NCBI GenBank assembly: GCA_045602025.1
Contig: JAZSAT010000038.1
Location: 36,157 to 100,156 of the forward strand
DNA length: 64,000 bases
Direction: 5' to 3'
DNA from: Eubacteriales bacterium
GTDB taxonomy: Bacteria > Bacillota > Clostridia > Oscillospirales > SIG627
The position numbers and the translations under genes are program-made. This document shows, piece by piece, positions 5,912 through 57,341 of this stretch. How positions within the stretch are numbered: position 1 is the stretch's first letter; each line of letters opens with the position of its first letter. A model generated the notes under the pieces. It saw nothing but the letters and a program-made list of their open reading frames with translations, was not told the origin of the DNA and ran no database searches.

Positions 5912-6001
5912 ATTGACTTCCTCTTTTTCTGTTAAAAAGGGCTGTCGCACAGGCACGACAGCCCAAACTTTACTTGATTATAAATTAAGTGCGGAAAAAA
6001 A

Positions 6002-7222
6002 TCAATAGGTTCCGTCCAAATCAACGGGGCCGTCATTTGCTTTTACTTCCTTGCGACGGCTGGTCTTTACTCTCTTCATCAATTCTTCATAGTAAAGCTC
6101 CTCATCAATGGGAAGGGTAATGGTTTCATCCTTCCAGGAGGAAAGGATCATCGCATTTGCAAGCTCTACGCCGTGGATACCTTCTTCTGCACGGGCATAG
6201 AGAGGCTCAATGCCAAGAACCGCATTTGCCACATTGGAAAGAATACCTGCATGCTGGGGATTGGGTGCATCCACTTCAATTTCAATGATCTCAAAGAGAG
6301 GCTTCTTCATACCGCTGCCCTTATCGTTTGCATTGTATTCTCTCTCGTCGATCTCGTTCTTGTAGAAGGTAAGGGTGTTGGTTCTCTTGCGAGCTTCACC
6401 GTTGCCGGAAAATACATTTTCATATACAAGTTTACCCATGGTACCGGTTACCTCAAAACGGTTGGTGCCGGGGGTATCACCCGTAGTGGTAACAAAAAGA
6501 CCGGTTGCGCCGTTCTCATACTCAAAATATGCGGTTACATCGTCTTCTACCTCAATATCGCGCCACTTGCCTGCATGGCAGAATGCACGAACTTTCTTCG
6601 GCACCATGCCAACGATCCACCAAAACAGGTCGATATTGTGGGGAGCCTGATTCAGAAGAACACCGCCGCCCTCGCCGGACCAGGTTGCGCGCCAGTCACC
6701 GGAATCATAGTAGGTCTGAGTGCGGTACCAGTCGGTAATGAGCCAGTTGGTACGCTTGATCTCGCCAAGCTCTCCGTTTTCTACCATTTCCTTCATCTTC
6801 TTGAAGTAGGGATTGGTACGCTGGTTGAACATAATACCGAAGAGCTGATCGGGATGCTTCTTTGCTTCCTCGATCATTTCTTTCACCTGCTTGGTATAAA
6901 CGCCTGCGGGCTTTTCTACTACGATGTGAAGACCTGCCTTCAGTGCCTTGATGGCAATTTTAGGGTGATCGTAGTGAGGAACACCGATGATTACAACATC
7001 GCATTCACCGGAATTGATCAATTCTTCATCGCTGTTAAAGTATTTTACATTATCAAGAAGAGGATTTCCTGCATATTTTTCCTTAACAACCTCAAGCTTT
7101 TTGGGGTTCAGATCCGCAACCGCGGTGAGAATACCGTTCTCGATCTTACCGTCCATAAAGTTCTTCATGTGGGTGTGGCCGATGTTACCGGCACCGATCA
7201 TACCAAATCTTACTTTGTCCAT
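6002..7222 (-). CDS. Gfo/Idh/MocA family oxidoreductase (406 aa)
   Basis: It begins MDKVRFGMIGAGNIGHTH and contains the EKP motif (VVEKPAG) typical of the family. Confidence 0.85.
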   Translation of the reverse strand: MDKVRFGMIGAGNIGHTHMKNFMDGKIENGILTAVADLNPKKLEVVKEKYAGNPLLDNVKYFNSDEELINSGECDVVIIGVPHYDHPKIAIKALKAGLHIVVEKPAGVYTKQVKEMIEEAKKHPDQLFGIMFNQRTNPYFKKMKEMVENGELGEIKRTNWLITDWYRTQTYYDSGDWRATWSGEGGGVLLNQAPHNIDLFWWIVGMVPKKVRAFCHAGKWRDIEVEDDVTAYFEYENGATGLFVTTTGDTPGTNRFEVTGTMGKLVYENVFSGNGEARKRTNTLTFYKNEIDEREYNANDKGSGMKKPLFEIIEIEVDAPNPQHAGILSNVANAVLGIEPLYARAEEGIHGVELANAMILSSWKDETITLPIDEELYYEELMKRVKTSRRKEVKANDGPVDLDGTY

Positions 7223-40107: not shown

Positions 40108-40262
40108 TCACGCACAAGAGCGGAAAAACAGGGGTGCTACGGCTGAGATGCAGATTGCTGCAAACCCTTTAACCTGAGATGGATAATACCGGCGTAGGGA
40201 GTTTTGAAAGAGATGCAGATTCGCGTTCGCACGGGACTTCCGTCCTGTGCGAATTTTTTATA
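40108..40262 (+). promoter_or_regulatory. TPP (THI-box) riboswitch with terminator expression platform
   Basis: Conserved aptamer elements are GGGGTGC, CTGAGA, ACCCTTTAACCTGAGATGGATAATACC and GGCGTAGGGA. They are followed by the hairpin ttcgcacgggac/ttcc/gtcctgtgcgaa plus T6 (40226-40259), then the SD taaggag. Confidence 0.85.
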
Positions 40263-47888: not shown

Positions 47889-47927
47889 GAAAAAAAGAAA
47901 CCAAACCGAGGTTTGGTTTCTTTTTGT
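47889..47927. terminator. Bidirectional terminator shared by dpaB and giant gene 1
   Basis: The hairpin is aagaaaccaaac/cgag/gtttggtttctt with flanking A and T runs. Confidence 0.8.
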
Positions 47928-47931
47928 TTGT

Positions 47932-50900
47932 TTAGAGTTCTACCTTGCCGCCAAGCTCAGCTTCTGTGCCGGCTTCGGGAGGATTCACGATCGAAACATC
48001 TCTGTTCAGGTAGTTATCAACTGCCTGAATGTAAATGAGGACATGCTTTGCAAGGCTGTTGTCAGGCTCCTTATTGATAATGCTCTGAGCCACCCAATCT
48101 ACCTGATCGGAAAGGGTAAGACACTTCTTACCGTTCTGATCAAAAATCTCAAAGTCCATCTTGTTCTGCATTTTAGATACGCTGAAGAAAATATCCACCG
48201 TAAATTCATATCTATCGCCCACCAAAACAGGCTCGGATACATCGCATACAGAGGTAACATCCTCTCCGTCTACCAGGATCTTCAAGCCATTTACACTCTC
48301 TGCGCTTGCCGCGGTACCGTAGAGACGGATACCGAGCGCATCATTCATCAGAAGGTTCTTGCCGGTAAAGGTAAGAAGTGCACCCTCTTCCGCTGCGCTG
48401 CCGCTTGCTCTGCTCGTCACAGCAGTATGATGAAGGTCGTGCTCTGCAAAACCGGGATTCAGTACGACTCTGCCAAGATCCGCAATGGAGTAGAAAAGCT
48501 GCTTGTCTCTGAATTCTGTGCAGCTTGCCGCGCCAAGCTCCGCAAGCTTAACAATGGTATTGTATTTTGCGCTGTTGGCATCATAGATTGTTTCACCCAG
48601 GATCGCAAATTCTGTCATAAAGTCGGAAAGTCCGATTCCGCCAAAGGAAAGAACATAATATTCTCCTTCTGCAGTCAAATCGGCAAAGCCGCCTTCTGCC
48701 AGCTTCTGTCCGCCCAGAAGAACCGTATAGGTAAAGTCTTCTGTGATATCCGCCTTGTTAAAGTAGAATTTCACACCTACTCTGGTATCCAAAAGAAGCT
48801 TTGCGGATACAGGAGCTACAAAGGTAGCCTCCTTGTAAGTACCTACAACCGTATTTGCATCTACCGCACCCTGACCGCAAACATAATCAGCAACCGAAAG
48901 CGTAAGCTTTCCGGTAGAATCGGTCAGGTAGGTACGGTCCTGCCAGTATTCTACCTGTGATACGGTTACATTGCCTTCCTCTGCGCCTGTAATGGTAACA
49001 GAGGCATCCTTGCCCACCTGAATGATACCGCTGCCGGTAAGAGATTCAACGGTGGTAGTACCGTAGAAGGTAATGGGCTTTGTGCCCAGGTTAAATGTAA
49101 GGGTTGCAGTGGTAACACCGCTGGTTTTCGCGCCCTTTGTAACGCTGCCGCGGAAAGCACCGCCGTTGATCGTGGTATTTACCGTGGGAATGGTAGCACT
49201 TTCACCTCCGCCGTAGAAGGTAGTGATATCACCGCCGGAAATGGTATTGGTTACCGTACCGGTTACCGTTCCGCCCTTGGAGCCGCCGTAGAAGGTACCG
49301 ATCGTACCGCCGTAAATTTCATTTTCAATGCTGCCGCTGAAGGTATTCACGCGGCTGCCGCCATAGAAGGTACCAACCTTACCGCCAAGGAAAATGTTCT
49401 TTACAAGTGCCGCAGAGCCGCCGTTGGCCGCCGCATATATGCCTTCCATGTCTGCGCCGTCTCTGATATAAGTTACAATTTTCGTTGTTACCTTACCGCT
49501 GTTACATCCGCCGCTGGGGTATCCTGTCATTTTTGCGGCAAAATGGTTTTCGATCTCATTGACTGTTGCGGAGTTACTGCCACAGTAGAAGCCTGTAGTA
49601 AACTTGGTCTGAGCCCCGCAAATGGTATTCTTAATGATCTTGTCGGTAGCAGTGGAAGCAGAAGCTCCGGAATAGCGAATAAAGCTTGCACCGTCGATCT
49701 CATTGATAATACGGTAAGTAAGGGAATCGTTTTCAGCAAAGGTAGCCAGGCTGTTACCGCCGTAGAACCAGTCGCCCTGGAAGGAAGCACCCTTGATCTT
49801 GTTGGTGATAGAGCCCTTAACGGTATATCCGCTCTTTTCGGTACCACCGTAGGTATTGTAAGAAGCAAGCTTCGCGCCTGTATCATCGTAGGTAATACCG
49901 CCGTAAGTACCGCCGATAAAGCTGTTTTCAATATTGCCGATAATGTTTCTGGTATAGTTACCGCAGAAAAGATTACCGAAAATAGTACAGTTCTTAAAGG
50001 TATTCTTAATGTTACCGTTCACCTGATTCTCGTAAGCGCCCATATAATGGCTGGCAGTAGCAGGCATGGTTACATTTTCAAAATAGTTCTCAATGGAAGC
50101 GGGAGAACCGCATCTTACACCGATAAAGGTAGACCCTGTAGCATTGGCAAAGCTTACATTTCTCAAAATATTGGTTACCTTGCCGCTGCCGCCACCGCCG
50201 TGGATCGCATCGCCCAGGGAGACACCCTGAATATTAAAGGTAACATCGCCCGTACAGCTACCGGGATTTGAACCGGAGCCGAAAAGACCTCTCAGATACT
50301 TCTGAATGGTAATTTCGCCGTCGGTAGGAGCAACTGTCAGGTTCATATCACCTTGAAGGTGACCGTCCCAAAGCATGTTAACACCGCGAAGAGAGCCACC
50401 GGTTACAATAACATTCATATCACCGTAGTACTGCTCGCCCTGACCCTCGGTATCGCCGCTCTGAGAGGTGCTGTGATCACCGTAGATCATATTCACGGTA
50501 CCCTTCTTCAAATGAACGGTAGCATCGGAGGGAGCTCCGCCCAGCTTTGTACTGATGTTCTGAAGGATCGTACCTTCACCGTCAATGGTCAAAGTAGGCT
50601 TAACCTGATAGGGTCTGATATCTGCCGCACCGGACACACCGGAAGCATAATACTTGATCGCCTTTGCCTCAGCATCGGAAAGAGCAGTGGTATTCTGGTT
50701 GAAAAGATAACCGGAAGCCGCTGCGCGGATTACGTTAGAATCCACAAATTCCACACCGTCACCGATGGTAACACCGGTCTTAACGGTTTCCCCTTCCTTC
50801 AGGGCAGGCCAACCAACAAATACAGCATCGGTACAGTTGTCTGCAAACAGGTATCCCTTATGCTCAAAATCAGCACCGTATGCACCGATGGGAGAGTTAC

Positions 50901-52356
50901 CTACTTCATACCAAAGCATTCTGGCATTGGGATTATTTTCCTTGAAGAAATCATATACATCGCCGATACCAAATTTAGCAACCCCATTTTCCTTATAAAC
51001 GCAGTTATCGATAACCTTGGTCTTATTTACCTCGTGATCTCCGGGATAAAAACCAAAGTCATCCAGGTGGTTGGTGGTTTCAAATACTGCTACGCTATCC
51101 CATGCCTTTGCGGGAAGAATGTCGGAAAGCAGTCTTATCGTATTCATCTCGTTGGATTTTACCGCACCCTGGCCGTTTGCATCGTACCAAACCTGCATGG
51201 AGTAGTCGCCGTTATCATTATAAATGTTGGAAGCAATGGTAGAGAATGCAATACTGGAGGTGTAGGCGTGGTGCACCTTCATATTCACACCTGCAGCACG
51301 GGCAACGGAAGCAAGCTCATCAATGCAGTAGTAAGCATTGGAAGAGCCGATAATCAAAAAGTTATAAATATTGTCAGCACCGATATCATCGGGCAAAACC
51401 TCTGTGCAGTAGCCTTCACCGTATTCCGCCGCAACCGCTGCATGAGCGATCTCCTGAAGCTCTTCAAAGGTCATATCGCTGTTTTTCAGGCTATAGGAAG
51501 GACGGAAGGTGTTGCCGATACAGCTTTTTCTCGTCAGTGTTTCAAACAGTACACAGGCATACAGATACTGACCGCCGCCGATATCACCCTCGTGACGCCA
51601 GTCACCGTAGTCAAGACCGTTTTTCATGGAATTTGCAAAAAGGAGATGACCCAGTTCTTCATCGCCGAATGCCGCGCTTTCCGCAGCCAGCATAGCAGCG
51701 TCGTTTACAGGGATCAGATCCACATCGTAAGTATCTCTTACATGCTCGGAAAGATGGGTGGAAAGAGCCGCCATCTCTTCAAATTCATCTCTGGTGGGAA
51801 CCATCAGCTGTGTGGTTCCGGAAAAGTTCAGATCGCAGTCTACAAACTTAATATTACCGGAGCCTGCATAAAACTGTGTATTCTGAGCCGCAAGAGGCAC
51901 CGTCATATTCACAAAGGTATAGTCGTTGGCACAGGCATACCAGCCGCCTGCTGCATCCAGATAAATAGATGAATCACGCTCGTAATTCTTATCAATACCG
52001 CGGATGGTAATGGGAAGCTTGGTACCGTCCTCTCTCCAGATAGTCGTAGCAGAAAAGAGAAGTCCCTGCTTACCCGTGGTAGTGGAATCGATACCCTGAG
52101 GTCCTGCCGATACCAGATCGCCCTGGAAACGGATCTCAAGGACATCGTCCTTGCCCCAGGAAACCTTTGCTGCCTTCTGCATTGCTGCAACAAAGTTAGA
52201 AAAATGCAGCTTTCCTTCTTCTTCGTAATCCGCTACGGTATAGATCTCCGTAGGGGTCTGCACTTGCGCCTTTGCACCGATGAAAAGCGCACCTGTCACA
52301 CAGGTGACCAGCATCATGATCGCAAGAACAAGTGATATCAGCTTGCGTTTTGTCAT
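47932..52356 (-). CDS. Giant secreted glycine-rich solenoid (beta-helix-like) protein with nested SGNH/DUF4886-like module, paralog 1 (1474 aa)
   Basis: The start MTKRKLISLVLAIMMLV (signal peptide) has the SD ggagg. It contains long imperfect repeats of the form N.I.GG....FYGG. It aligns end to end with 52914..57341. Confidence 0.8.
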   Translation of the reverse strand: MTKRKLISLVLAIMMLVTCVTGALFIGAKAQVQTPTEIYTVADYEEEGKLHFSNFVAAMQKAAKVSWGKDDVLEIRFQGDLVSAGPQGIDSTTTGKQGLLFSATTIWREDGTKLPITIRGIDKNYERDSSIYLDAAGGWYACANDYTFVNMTVPLAAQNTQFYAGSGNIKFVDCDLNFSGTTQLMVPTRDEFEEMAALSTHLSEHVRDTYDVDLIPVNDAAMLAAESAAFGDEELGHLLFANSMKNGLDYGDWRHEGDIGGGQYLYACVLFETLTRKSCIGNTFRPSYSLKNSDMTFEELQEIAHAAVAAEYGEGYCTEVLPDDIGADNIYNFLIIGSSNAYYCIDELASVARAAGVNMKVHHAYTSSIAFSTIASNIYNDNGDYSMQVWYDANGQGAVKSNEMNTIRLLSDILPAKAWDSVAVFETTNHLDDFGFYPGDHEVNKTKVIDNCVYKENGVAKFGIGDVYDFFKENNPNARMLWYEVGNSPIGAYGADFEHKGYLFADNCTDAVFVGWPALKEGETVKTGVTIGDGVEFVDSNVIRAAASGYLFNQNTTALSDAEAKAIKYYASGVSGAADIRPYQVKPTLTIDGEGTILQNISTKLGGAPSDATVHLKKGTVNMIYGDHSTSQSGDTEGQGEQYYGDMNVIVTGGSLRGVNMLWDGHLQGDMNLTVAPTDGEITIQKYLRGLFGSGSNPGSCTGDVTFNIQGVSLGDAIHGGGGSGKVTNILRNVSFANATGSTFIGVRCGSPASIENYFENVTMPATASHYMGAYENQVNGNIKNTFKNCTIFGNLFCGNYTRNIIGNIENSFIGGTYGGITYDDTGAKLASYNTYGGTEKSGYTVKGSITNKIKGASFQGDWFYGGNSLATFAENDSLTYRIINEIDGASFIRYSGASASTATDKIIKNTICGAQTKFTTGFYCGSNSATVNEIENHFAAKMTGYPSGGCNSGKVTTKIVTYIRDGADMEGIYAAANGGSAALVKNIFLGGKVGTFYGGSRVNTFSGSIENEIYGGTIGTFYGGSKGGTVTGTVTNTISGGDITTFYGGGESATIPTVNTTINGGAFRGSVTKGAKTSGVTTATLTFNLGTKPITFYGTTTVESLTGSGIIQVGKDASVTITGAEEGNVTVSQVEYWQDRTYLTDSTGKLTLSVADYVCGQGAVDANTVVGTYKEATFVAPVSAKLLLDTRVGVKFYFNKADITEDFTYTVLLGGQKLAEGGFADLTAEGEYYVLSFGGIGLSDFMTEFAILGETIYDANSAKYNTIVKLAELGAASCTEFRDKQLFYSIADLGRVVLNPGFAEHDLHHTAVTSRASGSAAEEGALLTFTGKNLLMNDALGIRLYGTAASAESVNGLKILVDGEDVTSVCDVSEPVLVGDRYEFTVDIFFSVSKMQNKMDFEIFDQNGKKCLTLSDQVDWVAQSIINKEPDNSLAKHVLIYIQAVDNYLNRDVSIVNPPEAGTEAELGGKVEL

Positions 52357-52409
52357 TGTTTTTCCTCCAAAAAACTTTTTCAGGAATATTTCATTCCTTC
52401 GCACCTTAC

Positions 52410-52438
52410 ATTCTACCTTAAATATGGGCTTCTTTCAA
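52410..52438 (-). promoter_or_regulatory. Putative promoter TTGAAA-17-TAGAAT for giant gene 1
   Basis: On the minus strand the -35 is at 52438-52433 and the -10 at 52415-52410. Confidence 0.4.
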
Positions 52439-52584
52439 CCTCTTTTTCTTTCCAATCGAAAAAAACAGCAAAAAAGACTATTAATTTCGAAAAAATTTGT
52501 GTATTTTAACGAAAAAAGAAACCAAACCGAGAGAAACACTTCGTGAAGAAGTTGTCTCTCTCGGTTTTTATTCCAACAAAAAAA

Positions 52585-52617
52585 TGACACTTTGCACAAA
52601 GATTATGAAAGTGTCAT
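52585..52617 (-). terminator. Hairpin + T-run inside the insertion
   Basis: The hairpin is atgacacttt/14-nt loop/aaagtgtcat, followed on the minus strand by T7. Confidence 0.5.
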
Positions 52618-52685
52618 AGTGGGTTACATACTTTGAGAAAGGTAATACTTGCCGAAAATGAAGAATATCTTTCTCAGCAGGTAAA

Positions 52686-52862
52686 GTGATTTTGCAAACT
52701 AAAAGTTTGCAGTGATATTTTTGCCTTGCGGCAAAAGTGATATGAAAACCTTGCGGTTTTCGTGATATTATATTCGCCCTAAAAACTGTCCGCAGGACAA
52801 TACCACTAGCATCAGCTAATATCACTGCGAAGCAATATCACTCGCCGTCAGGCGAATATAAC
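52686..52862. repeat. Composite palindromic array: 4x GTGAT(A/T)T+hairpin, then 4x hairpin+ATA(T/C)(C/A)AC
   Basis: GTGATAT-type heptamers lie at 52686, 52712, 52737 and 52762, each followed by a 7-8 bp hairpin. Their reverse complements lie at 52800, 52819, 52835 and 52856, each preceded by a short hairpin. An inverted repeat tatattcgcc/ggcgaatata is present at 52769-52778 and 52851-52860. Confidence 0.65.
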
Positions 52863-52913
52863 TGAGGCACCTTCCTTACGGAGGGTGCCTCGAAGTTTGG
52901 TTTCTTTTTTTGT

Positions 52914-55900
52914 TTAGAGTTCAACCTTTCCGCCGATCTCAGCTTCTCCGCCGGGTGTGGAAGGAGCAATGGGATGTATGGTCGGGTTGATGTAATCGTT
53001 TGTCTTCTGAATATAGATCAAAATCTGCTTTGCCAATGCATTGTCAGGCTCCTTGTTGATGATCATCTGTGCAACCCAATCCACCTGATCGGAAAGCGTA
53101 AGGCATCTCTTACCGTTTTCATCCAGAATCTGAATATCGAACCGGTTCTGCATTTTGGATACGCTGAAGAAAACATCCACCGTAAATTCATATCCGTCGG
53201 TACCTAAAACTGCCTCGGAAATATCGCACATTGCCGTTACATCTTTTCCGTCAAAAATCACCTTCATGCCGTCCACAGCTTCCGCACTCTGCGCTCTTGA
53301 GTAAAGACGGAGACCGATGGCATCGCTCATCAGAAGGTTTTTACCGGTAAAGCTGAGAAGTGCACCGTCCTCGCCGATCTGACCGGAGGAAGCGGAAACA
53401 ATATCACGGTAAGCCAGATTGTGCTGTACCGATGCAGGATCCTTTGCGCATCTGCCAAGATCCGCAATGGCATAGAACATTTGCTTTTCTCTGTATTTTT
53501 CGCAGTTTGCCGCACCAAGCTCCGCAAGCTCTACAACCGTATTGTGGTTTTCTGCACTTTCGTCATAGATCGCTTCGCTTTCAATGGAAAACTCGGTCAT
53601 AAAGTCGGAAAGTCCGATGCCGCCGAAGGAAAGGACAAGATATTCCCCTTCCTCAGTCAGGTCTTTGTATTCACCGGAGGCCAGCTCTTTTTCGCCCATG
53701 ACCACGGTGTAAGAGAAGCTTTCGGAAACATCTGATTTGTTAAAGTAGAATTTGATTCCTACTCTGGTATCCAAAACAAGTCTTGCCGCTACGGGAGTAG
53801 CCAGCTTTTCGGAAGGAGCAACGCCCACTACCGTATGACCGGAAACAGATGCCGTACCGGGTGCATCATCGATAACAGAAAGAGTGATCTTTTCGGTAGA
53901 ATCGGTAAAATAAGTCTGATCCTGCCAGTATTCTACCTGCTCCACCGCAACGTTTCCTGCCGTGCCGCCGCTTACGGTAACAGATGCGTTTTTACCCACC
54001 TGAATCACACCGCTTCCGGTAAGATTTTCAAGGGTAAAGGTGCCGTAGAATCTGATGGGAGCCTGTCCCAGCCGGAATTCTAAGGTCGCGGTGGTAACTG
54101 CACCGGTATTGCCTCCTTTTGTGATACTGTTGCGGAAAGCACCGCCGGAGATGGTGGTGTTCACTGCGGATGCACTGCCTGCATTACCGCCGCCGTAGAA
54201 ATTGGTGAAATCGCCGCCCTGAATCAGGTTTGTAACGGTACCTGAAACGGCAGAGCTTGCGGTATTACCGCCGCCGTAGAAATCACCGATCACACCGCCG
54301 GTCACCGTGTTTGTAACGCTTGCAACCTCTGCTGCTCGGCTACCGCCGTAGAAGGCTTCAACCTTACCGCCGGAAATAAAGTTTCGGACGAGTGTAGCAC
54401 CGTAGTTATTTCCCGCGGCGTAAATGTTGATCAGGTCCGCACCGTCCTCAATATAGTTGGTAACATTTTCTACGGTCGCATTGTTACCGCCGCCTACAAC
54501 CATACCGCCGGTAATTTTACCTTTGAAGTAATTGGTGATAGAGGTAACATTCGATGCAGAGGAAGCACAGTAAGTATATTTAAACTCATTCTCTCCGGCA
54601 AAGGTATTCTTTACCGTATCTACCGCTTTGTTTTCACAAGATCCGATAAATCTGGTATTGGAAGCCGTTACATTCGAGATCTCGTTTTCAATACGGAAAT
54701 CATATGCATCGCCTTCCGCAAAGGAGGCATAAGAGCTACCGCAGTAGAGATAAGTTGCGCTAAAGGAGGTACCGTCAATGGTGTTTTTGATCTGTCCGCC
54801 GATGGTATCCGTTCTGGTAGAGGAGGATGCAGTGCCGCCGTAATAAGTACCGATCACACTGCCGCCGGTTATGGTGTTGGTAACAGAGCCTGCAATGGAA
54901 GACAGGCGGTTTCCGCCGTAAAAATTCTTTTCAAAGGTAGAATTTTTGATGGTATTGGTAATGCTTCCGCGCACATAGCCGGATTTGTTTCCACCGTAAA
55001 CATTTCCTGCAAAACTGCAGTTTTCAATGGTATTTACTACATTGGTACAAGCATCGCCGTTGGTTCCGAGATAAAAATCCGCAGTCCCGCCAAAGCTTGT
55101 ATTTCTCAGTGTATTGGTCACGGTCACGGGCTGGTTGTTCATCGAACCGATGAAAATGCCGCCGATGGTACAATCTTCAATGGTATTATATACGTTTGCC
55201 TGATTGCTGCCGCCAAGCTTTACCTCGCCCACAATATTGGCGCCTTTGATATAGGTGGTGGAATCACCCGTGTATCTGCCCACCGTATTGTTACCCATAT
55301 TACCGCTGACGTTGCCTAAAATATTGATGTTTTCTTTGCCTGTTTTCTCAATATGAAGATTTACGTTTCCTACCACAGTGGAATCCCAGGTGGTATTCAC
55401 CGATCCTGCCACCGTGCCGCCGTTTACGATGATACCAAGATCACCGTAGAAATACTCTTCCTTGCCGTCAAGACCGTTGTCTGTGGACTGCACGGTATAG
55501 TTGTCACAGCCGATTCTCTGTACGCCGCCTTTTTTCAAATGAACGGTAGCGGCACAGGGAGAAGAACCGACCTTTGCCGCAACGTTATATACCTTGGCAT
55601 TTTCACCGTCAATATAGAAGGTGACCTCAGTATCTACGGGACGAATGTCGGGAATATCCTCCAAGCCGCTTTCCATAAATTTGACTTCTTTTGCGGAAGC
55701 AGCATCCAATTTAGAATAGGCCTCGTCGGGGTGATAGCCGGAAGCCGCCACCAAAATGGCTGCTCTGGACTCGGCGGTGGAAGTATCTTCATACACCACG
55801 TTATTACCGAAGGTGATGCTCGTTTTTACTTTTTCACCGGCCTTCAATTCAGGCCAACCTGCAAATACCGCATCGGTACAGGTATCTGCATAAATATATC

Positions 55901-57341
55901 CGTTCAATTCTCCGGTGCTGGTGCCGAATGCGCCGATGGGCGCTACGGGCGGCTGATACCAGAAAAGACCCGCGCCTTCCGGCAAATTCTCTCTCAGGAA
56001 GGCATAGGTTCCTTCCGCACCTGCCATATCCGGCATGATCTTATTGATGTTTGCAGGGTAATCGGATTCTTTCAAGCCATAATCGTCAAACTGGGAAGCG
56101 CCGGTATAAACAAAGCACGCGTCCCAGGTCTTCAAAGGCATAATGTTTTGAAGGGACTGTTTTGCGGTGGTAGTCAGTTTTGCGCCGCTTCCGGTATCTT
56201 TCCATACGCGCAGCTGATATTCTTCTGCGGCGGTATTTATTTTCTCCCACTGCGGATTGATTTTAAGGCTTGAGATATATGGGTTGTAAACGTTCATATC
56301 AAGCCCTGCGTGGTAGCCGAGGGAAGCAAGTTCATCTGCAAAATAGTAACAAGTAGAAGAACCGGGGAACAAAATGTTAAATTCCCCATCGTTTCCAATG
56401 TCGGTAAAGGACGCATTAAAATAGTCCTCACCGTAATAATTTACGACAGCGCGGTGTGCAAGTTCGCGAAGCGCCTTGAAGGACATATTGGGATTTACAA
56501 GTCCATAGCTGGGTTCCCAATCAATATTAAGGCAACTCATGTGCGTCACCACTTCAAAAACGATACAAGCGTTCAGGTACTGACCGCCGCCTACATCACC
56601 GTCATGGGTCCAGTCACCGTACAGCGTACCCTTGGAAGCCATCGCGCGAAGAACGTGACCGTATTCTGTGCTGTGGAAGGGTGATGAAGGGTCATTTACA
56701 ACTTCAGCCCAAGCATCTCCCGCGGGAATCATACCCACGTTGTAAAGGCTGCAAATTCGATCCGAAACCTCTTTAGAAAGGCGAATGAGTTGCTTTTGAG
56801 AAGAAGCATCCGGTACCATAATACGAGAAGAAGTGGTTGCCAGATGACATTCCTCAAATTTTACGTTGCCCGAACCTGCATAAAAAGTGACGCCCCAAGT
56901 GCCGATGGGCATGGTAAGGTTTACGAAGGTGTAGTCGTTGGCACAAGCATACCAGCCGCCTGCGTGGTCAAGGTCGATCAGTGCATCGCGGCTTTTTTTG
57001 GTATCAATACCACGGATGGTAATAGGAAGTTTCGTTCCGTCTTCTCTCCAAATGGTCTTTTGTGCAAAAAGAAGACCGTCCTGCGCCCCTGCGCCCGACT
57101 GTGTTCCGGAAAAGCGGATTTCCAGAGCATCGTCCTTTTTCCACTGACCGCTTTCTTTGGCAGCGTTTGCAAGGGCGGTGGTAATATCGATAAAATGCTC
57201 TTTTCCTTCTTCGGTGTAATCACAAGCAGTATAAATCACCGTAGCCTCCTTTGCTCCCGCTCCTAAAATAAGGACTCCCAAAACACAAGAAGCCAAAAGG
57301 AGAACGGAAAGCAGCAAAGATAATACTTTTATTTTTTTCAT
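52914..57341 (-). CDS. Giant secreted glycine-rich solenoid protein with nested SGNH/DUF4886-like module, paralog 2 (1475 aa)
   Basis: The signal peptide has a lipobox-like LLASC. The SD is ggagg. The architecture matches paralog 1 and the C-terminal GGKVEL is identical. Confidence 0.8.
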   Translation of the reverse strand: MKKIKVLSLLLSVLLLASCVLGVLILGAGAKEATVIYTACDYTEEGKEHFIDITTALANAAKESGQWKKDDALEIRFSGTQSGAGAQDGLLFAQKTIWREDGTKLPITIRGIDTKKSRDALIDLDHAGGWYACANDYTFVNLTMPIGTWGVTFYAGSGNVKFEECHLATTSSRIMVPDASSQKQLIRLSKEVSDRICSLYNVGMIPAGDAWAEVVNDPSSPFHSTEYGHVLRAMASKGTLYGDWTHDGDVGGGQYLNACIVFEVVTHMSCLNIDWEPSYGLVNPNMSFKALRELAHRAVVNYYGEDYFNASFTDIGNDGEFNILFPGSSTCYYFADELASLGYHAGLDMNVYNPYISSLKINPQWEKINTAAEEYQLRVWKDTGSGAKLTTTAKQSLQNIMPLKTWDACFVYTGASQFDDYGLKESDYPANINKIMPDMAGAEGTYAFLRENLPEGAGLFWYQPPVAPIGAFGTSTGELNGYIYADTCTDAVFAGWPELKAGEKVKTSITFGNNVVYEDTSTAESRAAILVAASGYHPDEAYSKLDAASAKEVKFMESGLEDIPDIRPVDTEVTFYIDGENAKVYNVAAKVGSSPCAATVHLKKGGVQRIGCDNYTVQSTDNGLDGKEEYFYGDLGIIVNGGTVAGSVNTTWDSTVVGNVNLHIEKTGKENINILGNVSGNMGNNTVGRYTGDSTTYIKGANIVGEVKLGGSNQANVYNTIEDCTIGGIFIGSMNNQPVTVTNTLRNTSFGGTADFYLGTNGDACTNVVNTIENCSFAGNVYGGNKSGYVRGSITNTIKNSTFEKNFYGGNRLSSIAGSVTNTITGGSVIGTYYGGTASSSTRTDTIGGQIKNTIDGTSFSATYLYCGSSYASFAEGDAYDFRIENEISNVTASNTRFIGSCENKAVDTVKNTFAGENEFKYTYCASSASNVTSITNYFKGKITGGMVVGGGNNATVENVTNYIEDGADLINIYAAGNNYGATLVRNFISGGKVEAFYGGSRAAEVASVTNTVTGGVIGDFYGGGNTASSAVSGTVTNLIQGGDFTNFYGGGNAGSASAVNTTISGGAFRNSITKGGNTGAVTTATLEFRLGQAPIRFYGTFTLENLTGSGVIQVGKNASVTVSGGTAGNVAVEQVEYWQDQTYFTDSTEKITLSVIDDAPGTASVSGHTVVGVAPSEKLATPVAARLVLDTRVGIKFYFNKSDVSESFSYTVVMGEKELASGEYKDLTEEGEYLVLSFGGIGLSDFMTEFSIESEAIYDESAENHNTVVELAELGAANCEKYREKQMFYAIADLGRCAKDPASVQHNLAYRDIVSASSGQIGEDGALLSFTGKNLLMSDAIGLRLYSRAQSAEAVDGMKVIFDGKDVTAMCDISEAVLGTDGYEFTVDVFFSVSKMQNRFDIQILDENGKRCLTLSDQVDWVAQMIINKEPDNALAKQILIYIQKTNDYINPTIHPIAPSTPGGEAEIGGKVEL

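Follow-up and report, generated by a model that had tools for sequence, protein, structure and literature searches.

In the window analysed here, a stretch of 64,000 nucleotides from a Eubacteriales bacterium (contig JAZSAT010000038.1 of GenBank assembly GCA_045602025.1, positions 36,157 to 100,156 of the forward strand), two giant paralogous genes lie in tandem on the minus strand, and the terminator that follows each of them has a different structure. After the downstream gene the two arms of the terminator are contiguous, and after the upstream gene the same arms are 367 nt apart. The question raised by this locus is what the intervening segment (52528-52894) is and how it came to be there. 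We read it as a class-2 Gut-1 element, a gene-less mobile repeat of ~360 bp belonging to a family of which the Rfam motif Gut-1 (RF01706) is a part, which is inserted in the loop of a terminator, is non-autonomous and would have been moved in trans; we put the probability of this reading at roughly three in four. The features of the site are listed in the order in which the two genes are transcribed.

57341 to 52914, minus strand: gene A, the upstream giant paralog, 1475 aa, with its stop at 52914.
52895 to 52911, minus strand: proximal half of the gene A intrinsic terminator, host DNA; reads AAAAAAAGAAACCAAAC and is identical to the intact terminators at 47889-47927 and in an orthologous locus (L122, 3078-3112).
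52528 to 52894, minus strand: the insert, comprising everything between the terminator arms, 367 nt; a class-2 Gut-1 element that measures 359-363 bp according to the reading of the junction repeat.
52511 to 52527, minus strand: distal half of the gene A terminator with its T-run, host DNA; reads GTTTGGTTTCTTTTTT, and the sequence downstream aligns with orthologous intergenic regions.
52410 to 52438, minus strand: gene B promoter, TTGAAA-17-TAGAAT, outside the insert and conserved in orthologs.
52404 to 47932, minus strand: gene B, the downstream giant paralog, 1490 aa.
47889 to 47927, both strands: intact bidirectional terminator after gene B, aaaaaaagaaaccaaac-cgag-gtttggtttcttttt at 47890-47925, contiguous; the empty site within the window.

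The left arm, gaaaaaagaaaccaaac, ends at 52527 (or at 52531 with cgag included) and the right arm, gtttggtttcttttttt, starts at 52895, and the 367 nt between them correspond to the original 4-nt loop plus a net insertion of 363 nt. An initial annotation made from the window sequence had remarked on 363 nt splitting arms that are contiguous at the paralog, and this stands (52531/52895 versus 47890-47925), as does the split terminator itself; its account of the direction does not, because the genes are on the minus strand and the terminator therefore follows the upstream paralog, gene A, lying 3' of that gene and 5' of gene B's own promoter. The host portion has the form of an intrinsic terminator, with a GC-containing stem and then a T-run directly after the stop codon, and is a single hairpin in the paralog and the orthologs.

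The orthologs, reached by a homology search with gene A, are in two genomes (69% and 71% protein identity) and provide two further empty sites. In GCA_054275365.1 (L121) the terminator after gene A is intact, aaaaagaagccaaac-ttcg-gtttggcttttttt, and the intergenic region is only 203 nt; in GCA_017560245.1 (L122, 3078-3112) it is likewise intact, aaaaagaaaccaaac-ttcg-gtttggtttcttttttt, with arms identical to those of the window. The remainder of the intergenic region, including the gene B promoter, can be aligned across all three genomes. Because there are three independent empty sites (the in-window paralog, L121 and L122), sequence comparison supports the 363-nt segment as a real secondary insertion into the terminator loop. 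This is the course of events that the initial annotation had favoured, and the search for empty sites in relatives that it had recommended gave its answer in both orthologs, which lack the segment and have contiguous arms.

The insert was connected to a known family by a permissive scan with Rfam covariance models, run on a 611-nt region and on the whole window. Gut-1 matches the minus strand from 52864 to 52795 with 48.9 bits (E 1.3e-8 in the 611-nt search and 1.3e-6 in the whole window), which is 1.1 bits short of the RF01706 gathering score of 50 bits, and a second, weaker match of 20.5 bits is at 52684-52753 on the plus strand. The window has no further Gut-1 matches, and among its other Rfam matches only a TPP riboswitch is above gathering score. 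The seed sequence BAAZ01000095 is 78% identical to the window over ~230 nt that span an end hairpin and both of the hairpin arrays described below, it likewise lies inside a split hairpin (GGGGCTGCCG...CGGCAGCCCC), and the seed alignment as a whole has the same wider architecture as the window. Homology to the Gut-1 seeds and hairpins separated by GUGAWAU are both seen in the window, and the stems show compensatory changes across the 81 copies that we aligned. Gut-1 was defined from human-gut environmental sequence only, without a function, and was rated 'Y' for RNA (Weinberg 2010, PMC2864571). Rfam types RF01706 as 'Gene; sRNA' (small RNA), and a literature search found Gut-1 or RF01706 mentioned in no other paper. 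The window element resembles RF01706 in having three to four short hairpins split by a conserved heptamer, GUGAAAU or GUGAUAU, but the Rfam model covers just 77 nt of a core of ~172 nt, or of a class-2 unit of 360 nt, and the published account makes no link to mobility or to terminators, whereas here the family is present in many metagenome-assembled genomes (MAGs) of Clostridia from ruminant and human guts.

A pattern taken from the conserved centre, GCGAATATAATATCAC-N14-24-ATATCAC, was scanned in a collection of species-representative genomes and found in at least 120 stretches. Among the matches listed, every one comes from a human- or ruminant-gut MAG of the Clostridia (Acutalibacteraceae, Oscillospiraceae, Ruminococcus, Faecousia and others), and 12 of these MAGs have two or three copies on different contigs, so the multiplicity typical of miniature inverted-repeat transposable elements (MITEs), for which the initial annotation had proposed to look, is found both across and within genomes. 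The core pattern is present in one IMG/VR contig only, and a BLAST search of plasmids and phages with the insert finds the array partially present in one faecal phage record. The copies compared, 126 in number, fall in two classes. Class 1 is the bare core (93 copies), and class 2 (33 copies, including the window) adds to it a conserved end hairpin, a tail of ~130 nt and an inverted hairpin at the opposite end. Class-2 copies from different species are 78-94% identical, and that in the window matches L114 with 89.8% identity over 361 nt; these values exceed the 69-71% of the surrounding orthologous proteins, as expected for an element that has spread recently. For class 2, little can be learned in most cases from the orientation of copies with respect to neighbouring genes. 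In a Faecousia MAG (L112), two class-2 elements of different subfamilies share a stretch of 8 kb, at ~1630-1990 and ~5980-6400, and their nearest relatives are L114 (89%) and L117 (80%), respectively.

The core of ~172 nt was defined by an alignment of 81 copies, and in it four GTKATAT + hairpin units precede four hairpin + ATATCAC units. A long-range helix, AGTTATATTCGCC/GGCGAATATAAT, has 11 pairs that are invariant or nearly so, and in the stems 96% of 2996 positions are Watson-Crick despite differences in sequence, with dozens of double compensatory changes per pair. The loops are TTC, TTGC or TTAC in the left array and GAA, GCAA or GTAA in the right, and the arrays are true inverted copies of one another, so that both DNA strands display the same pattern. 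The linkers are almost invariant in the right array and vary at positions 3-4 in the left (GTG/GTT/GTTC), which argues against a conserved pairing of linker with linker.

Read along the minus strand, the window insert consists of an end hairpin, four GTKATAT + hairpin units, the inverted array, a tail with a site that resembles an origin of transfer (oriT) and an inverted end hairpin.

52864 to 52891, minus strand: left end hairpin, GAGGCACCCTCC-GTAA-GGAAGGTGCCTC (inverted repeat I12), conserved in the family.
52795 to 52864, minus strand: left hairpin array, the Rfam Gut-1 match of 48.9 bits, with GUGAUAU between hairpins.
52768 to 52778, minus strand: distal arm of the long-range helix, GGCGAATATAA, containing TATAAT; pairs with TTATATTCGCC at 52851-52861 (I11, 100%).
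52684 to 52770, plus strand: right hairpin array, an inverted copy of the left, with four GTGATTT/GTGATAT + hairpin units; the minus strand reads hairpin + ATATCAC.
52634 to 52676, no strand assigned: tail hairpin, TGAGAAAGGTA / TATCTTTCTCA (I17), conserved in class-2 copies.
52584 to 52631, plus strand: MOBV-type oriT-like site, a hairpin at 52584-52617 and then ATAGTGGG/TTACATAC (52616-52631), with a predicted nick at 52623|52624.
52524 to 52567, minus strand: right end hairpin, GAGAGAGACAACTTC-TTCAC-GAAGTGTTTCTCTC (I7, I1), an inverted and ~70% identical copy of the left end hairpin.

The hairpins already noted in the initial annotation, a long one and a second one with T7, were both recovered by the repeat search, and its GTGATAT array has 2 matches where 0 are expected; the Gut-1 match, the two-fold symmetry of the arrays and the oriT-like site come in addition to what it described. 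The long hairpin is I7 (52524-52538 / 52553-52567, 93%) and the second is I18 (52584-52593 / 52608-52617, 100%), in which the A7 that precedes it on the plus strand is the T7 that follows it on the minus strand. The repeat search also gives a GC hairpin that adjoins the right arm (I12, 52864-52875 / 52880-52891) and a 51-nt inverted repeat (I1, 52508-52558 / 52864-52914, 76% complementary) composed of the host arms and ~30 nt of the element. The folding of the region is far beyond chance on either strand (z ~ -14). An 85-aa open reading frame (ORF) on the minus strand (52568-52825, start codon GTG) spans the hairpin arrays of the insert. An ORF of at least 70 aa is present at that place in only 30 of the 126 copies, with variable lengths and positions, and the similarity among these ORFs is a consequence of nucleotide conservation; the comparison supports the view, put forward earlier, that the 85-aa ORF is an artefact and that the insert has no gene.

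The relationship to terminators extends beyond the window. We compared the 35-nt left and right flanks of the 25 class-2 copies in which both are available, using as control the pairing of flanks from different copies. The mean pairing energy is -23.2 kcal/mol for flanks of the same copy and -14.7 (sd 4.4) for those of different copies, and 15 of the 25 copies are beyond the 5th percentile of the control and 9 beyond the 1st. The flanking arms differ in sequence from locus to locus and have an A-run before and a T-run after them, which identifies them as host bidirectional terminators. Class-2 relatives split different host terminators, as in the window. An integron-like R-box (GTT/AAC), considered for the arms in the window, was rejected when other copies were seen to lack it. 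At two loci (L041 ~7499 and L069 ~7575, reverse strand) a solo class-2 end hairpin, GGAGACACTTCGTWAAGAAGTTGTCT, is present as a gene terminator, and each of these may be either a footprint left by the element or a precursor of it.

On the minus strand the filled site in the window reads AAAC-TTCG|AGGCACC ... GTTTCTCT-CTCG|GTTTGG, with TCG, CG or YTCG as the junction repeat, and the insertion point is no more than 1 nt from the dyad centre, at or beside a CG.

52891 to 52894, minus strand: left junction, TTCG, the ancestral loop in both orthologs.
52528 to 52531, minus strand: right junction, CTCG, a partial repeat of the loop (TCG/CG) and a candidate 2-4-nt target duplication or crossover dinucleotide.

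The repeat that the initial annotation saw in cgag and cgaa is real, but it does not give a single length of target duplication, being readable as 0, 2, 3 or 4 nt. CG or TCG is at both junctions in all six copies of the window's subfamily, and in other subfamilies the junction is AT, TT, AA or TA. A 2-nt repeat fits all 15 junctions read and, in the copies read, never lies more than ~2 nt from the dyad centre; alternatively, these strings parse as 3-4 nt in some copies, or as zero duplication with the element running from hairpin to hairpin.

The tail introduces a second kind of relationship, with mobilisable elements. Tn4451 and Tn4453 have a large serine recombinase, TnpX, and a MOBV relaxase, TnpZ, which acts on the site RS_A. 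A 17-mer from the tail, GTAACCCACTATGACAC, is present in nine IMG/VR contigs, seven of which contain a homologue of the Mob_Pre relaxase (tblastn). In the Tn4451-like contigs the relaxase gene (PF01076, E 1e-52) follows ~60 nt after the motif, and its neighbours encode an AAA_25 protein, a chloramphenicol acetyltransferase and a large serine recombinase, and an alignment shows ~45 conserved nt to be common to class-2 tails and mob-upstream regions. The attributes of an RS_A site, namely an inverted repeat, a GTGnG/TT nick sequence within ~8 nt and homology to sites upstream of Mob_Pre genes, are all found in the window. In the MOBV prototype, pMV158, the nick is at 5'-TGTG/TTATAC-3' with an inverted repeat 8 nt upstream, and the site is just upstream of mobM (PMC5863519). 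The window site is similar in having a hairpin and, a few nt later, a GTGnG/TTAyAC nick sequence, and it differs in lacking an adjacent mob gene or promoter and in that its nicking is a prediction only. We read the I18 hairpin and T7 as a putative MOBV-type oriT-like site whose minus strand would double as a hairpin + T7 (52583-52577) terminator. No Rfam family was found for the oriT-like region, even in its full form.

Among plasmids, the BLAST search with the insert returned only a 35-nt match, 97% identical, in two Kurthia plasmids, with the motif in the leader of a catB-like gene. In one of these, Kurthia gibsonii plasmid pND2a (L124, NZ_CP147848.1 20300-20700), the oriT-like motif occurs together with a promoter, TTTTTATGCTATACT, and a ribosome-binding site (RBS), GAAGGCGGTG, all in the leader of a CatB-related acetyltransferase gene beside an IS1182 transposase; this co-occurrence shows the motif, promoter and RBS to be common to Bacillales plasmids and Clostridia chromosomes.

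Most likely we are dealing with a MITE-like remnant, itself non-autonomous, of a mobilisable element, with the dyad centre of terminators as its target. It is small and without coding capacity, there are filled and empty sites and many unrelated loci, and its ends are inverted hairpins of ~70% identity which we take as terminal inverted repeats (TIRs), the hairpin sequence being of a common type. It is probably a deletion derivative of an integrative or mobilisable element, in which genes would have been lost between the arrays and the oriT; they are placed there because this is where the mob gene sits in complete elements. A trans-acting enzyme would recognise the symmetric A-run/stem/stem/T-run DNA of bidirectional terminators, or the hairpin extruded from it, and cut at the dyad centre, leaving a 2-4-nt repeat and, on each side, a hairpin beside a host T-run. 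Our leading guess is a large serine recombinase of the kind found in Tn4451-type mobilisable transposons, attractive because of its 2-nt crossover repeat, its palindromic substrates and its association with a MOBV oriT in elements of that type; a DDE transposase generating 2-3-bp duplications is equally possible.

Such an insertion should be tolerated, since the end hairpins adjoin a host arm and T-run on each side. The right end hairpin with the host arm and T-run would form a replacement terminator, as had been suggested for the window and as fits the anatomy of the family, in which an end hairpin adjoins the host T-run. Termination would be restored on both strands, the internal hairpin + T7 would also stop read-through from gene A, and the gene B promoter would be untouched, with the gene A mRNA gaining a structured 3' untranslated region (UTR) of ~300 nt that carries the arrays. 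From this arrangement the insertion is probably near-neutral.

Several observations weigh against the interpretation as a mobile repeat. The sequence of the end hairpin, CTCCGTAAGGAAG, is of a common, generic type, and the term TIR may overstate its specificity; the junction in the window allows a parse with no duplication, as an insertion between C and G; only one copy of the element is present within the 64-kb window; and Gut-1 is classed as RNA by the Rfam curators. A search of 0.8 Mb of loci plus viral contigs found no cognate autonomous element sharing these ends, and no transposase, recombinase or relaxase genes were found in the window or linked to copies. The one Tn4451-like end that was examined (L125) has no similarity to the ends of the element. 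A possible connection to a serine recombinase was provided by L095, in which a large-serine-recombinase element (384-2155) ends 13 nt from a class-1 core, its boundary being readable as ...AAAAATGCAGT|. Homologues of the serine recombinase were found by tblastn in L095 and L076 only, a 99%-identical recombinase has a different flank in L134 (4001-5800; compared with L095 and L008), and the array is present in just one of 80 metagenome loci with L095-like recombinases. Because of this last count, and because the L095 element sits at another site in L134, which is itself a further point against, we regard the adjacency as coincidental and rejected the link.

Two related searches were also negative. 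A scan of viral contigs for the end-hairpin sequence returned unrelated coding regions and generic terminators only, and neither tandem copies nor the junction of an excised circle was seen in the loci compared. Membership of the Tn4451-like group is not indicated, there being no large serine recombinase gene in or near the element and its ends being dissimilar. The likeness to Tn4451 and Tn4453 is in the oriT/RS_A-like motif, common to the Tn4451-like IMG/VR elements, and in a junction repeat that, read as 2 nt, is compatible with a serine-recombinase crossover; the window element differs in being gene-less and in a junction dinucleotide that is not GA and varies by subfamily.

The element can also be compared with MITEs and with repeats sited in hairpins. 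Correia/CREE, BOX and RUP are repeats of this sort, and IS1397 and ISKpn1 insert in the loops of REP (repetitive extragenic palindromic) sequences. The likeness is that the element is small, gene-less and multicopy, with inverted ends, an intergenic location, a short junction repeat and an effect on transcript ends, and the differences are that the target here is the loop of a generic intrinsic terminator rather than a sequence or a REP, that there is a symmetric hairpin array and an oriT-like site inside, and that the parent insertion sequence is not known. Class C group II introns are also mobile DNAs that home to terminators, but they insert just past the terminator stem rather than in the loop, and they encode or need a reverse transcriptase and have ribozyme domains, neither of which was found here. 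A literature search for terminator-targeting MITEs in Clostridia found nothing relevant.

Of the other explanations, the one that survives best, although we consider it unlikely, is that the segment is primarily an RNA gene, either a processed 3' UTR of gene A or an sRNA, in which the GUGAUAU linkers titrate an RNA-binding protein or a complementary RNA and mobility is secondary. The 'Gene; sRNA' type of the RF01706 match and the 'Y' rating of Weinberg 2010 point in this direction, as does the strong covariation of the stems, although the second array is an exact inverted counterpart of the first in both linker and loop type, a symmetry that an RNA does not need. Strand-specific features are seen, with 51 C(UUCG)G loops on the minus-type strand across the 81 copies, a conserved T.G pair that closes H1 and an excess of G.T over A.C in the other stems (20 versus 8); set against these, GCGAAGC occurs 90 times on the left-array complement. 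Class-1 copies adjacent to tRNA or tmRNA genes are co-oriented with the tRNA (~35/35), and the internal hairpin + T7 would end a transcript, but a promoter was not found inside the element on the minus strand, the left linkers vary and linker-linker pairing is not conserved.

The distribution of GCGAAGC raises the next possibility. GCGAAGC forms an exceptionally stable DNA mini-hairpin and is found in single-strand origins. In the 81 cores it occurs 90 times on the left-array complement and 10 times on the right array, and never on the opposite strands, and the shorter CGAAG occurs 145 and 38 times, respectively; the window has this strand-specific loop signature at 52836-52846 on the plus strand. 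By analogy, the arrays may be cis-acting single-stranded DNA sites of a miniature mobilisable element, either for priming in the manner of sso or ssi (single-strand origin and initiation) sites or as landing sites for a relaxase or accessory protein, working together with the adjacent oriT, and we would hold this to be a little less likely again than the RNA gene. The enrichment of GCGAAGC and CGAAG, the two-fold symmetry that presents one GAA-loop array per strand and the oriT-like site within 60 nt of the arrays are in keeping with it; A-GTGATAT-T after each hairpin resembles the oriT hairpin with its following ATAGTGGG-TT, and the invariant long-range helix would give a double-stranded TATAAT in folded single-stranded DNA. 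The lack of a minus-strand promoter inside the element, a difficulty for an RNA gene, is compatible here. The analogy is one of sequence only, however, class-1 copies have arrays and no oriT, and a 360-bp circle is a doubtful substrate for conjugation.

Class-1 copies have an ecology of their own. The core adjoins a terminator T-run in 55 of the 73 readable copies, and ~35 copies follow the terminator of an operon for tRNA or tmRNA and invariably point in its direction. The tRNA-operon copies (L002, L004, L010, L017, L045 and ~30 others; for example L004 7310-7600) are located directly after the terminator of the last gene and are associated with at least 12 different anticodons, one copy following a tmRNA gene. 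At L099 (1-340) a class-1 copy lies between direct repeats of 60 nt, and at L105 (3190-3700) a copy is flanked by the 3' end of tRNA-Trp and a near-copy of the tRNA-Trp terminator; by their sequence, these direct repeats would be the expected trace of site-specific integration at a tRNA end. A T-loop-like GTTCRAAYC follows 20 of 77 class-1 copies. In L038 (8 kb, reverse strand), L064 and L118 there are cassette-like rows in which double arrays alternate with small, variable genes in the same direction, encoding lipoprotein-like, XRE-TPR and bactofilin-like products, each with a conserved promoter, TTTTATGCTATAAT, and RBS, AGGCGGTGA, ahead of it and a conserved CCAGTTCTTTTTCGGACA motif behind. 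One L038 spacer belongs to a different array family, whose ACATCAT / GATGTKG linkers are arranged the opposite way round, divergently.

These rows suggest a third explanation, that the double array is an attC-like, structure-specific recombination site of a gene-cassette system of which the window has a stray copy. The class-1 cores that separate the small same-direction variable genes in L038, the direct repeats of tRNA 3' end and terminator in L099 and L105, and the conserved promoter and RBS after 8-16 of 77 cores would accord with such a system, but no linked integrase was found, the window copy has no cassette gene, and class-2 copies have ends of their own and sit in unrelated terminators, all of which makes it improbable for the window. 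Finally, an ancestral segment lost by precise deletion from the paralogous terminator and the orthologs, in line with the loss from the other copy that the initial annotation had kept as an alternative, is a formal possibility only and can be practically dismissed, as it needs three independent deletions, all of them exact and each leaving behind a perfect terminator whose loop is 4 nt, and at least 15 unrelated loci hold the same element in different terminators.

Returning to the mobile-repeat interpretation, it could be extended to the family as a whole. Gut-1 would then represent not sRNA genes but the cis-acting core of miniature integrative-mobilisable elements of gut Clostridia, in which all the sites required in cis are packed in ~360 bp, namely hairpin ends for excision and for integration at the dyad of any bidirectional terminator, a MOBV oriT with which to exploit resident conjugation machinery, and symmetric arrays of highly stable DNA mini-hairpins for single-strand priming or protein loading. 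The arrays found at tRNA ends would then belong to a related integration system of cassette type; we offer this as a speculative proposal, which we think unlikely.

Relative to the searchable literature, what is new is that the orphan Gut-1 motif belongs to mobile elements that seek terminator loops and have an oriT-like module; the kind of element, MITE-like or defective mobilisable, is already known. Gut-1, without function or host since 2010, thereby gains an identity as a component of a mobile repeat with a wide distribution in uncultured gut bacteria of the Oscillospirales type. Terminator loops are documented as a preferred insertion site, and the filled and empty sites form a clean system for the study of structure- or palindrome-directed integration. 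Because such elements rewrite gene 3' ends and may furnish chromosomes with oriT-like sites, they could influence gene expression as well as horizontal transfer in the gut microbiome. For annotation, we note that the family gives rise to spurious ORFs of 70-150 aa.

Among other features of the neighbourhood, gene A and gene B are 47% identical, and the tandem pair is kept in at least one related genome (L121). On the ortholog contigs synteny is kept for the aro genes, a membrane transporter, gene A, gene B and a convergent flavoprotein gene. The giant paralogs (47932-52404 and 52914-57341, minus strand) have N-termini that resemble signal peptides, and no Pfam domain was found in them with confidence, the best being a weak match to DUF4886. 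The TPP riboswitch (RF00059) is at 40120-40217 on the plus strand, with 63.5 bits, upstream of a plus-strand ORF that starts at 40179.

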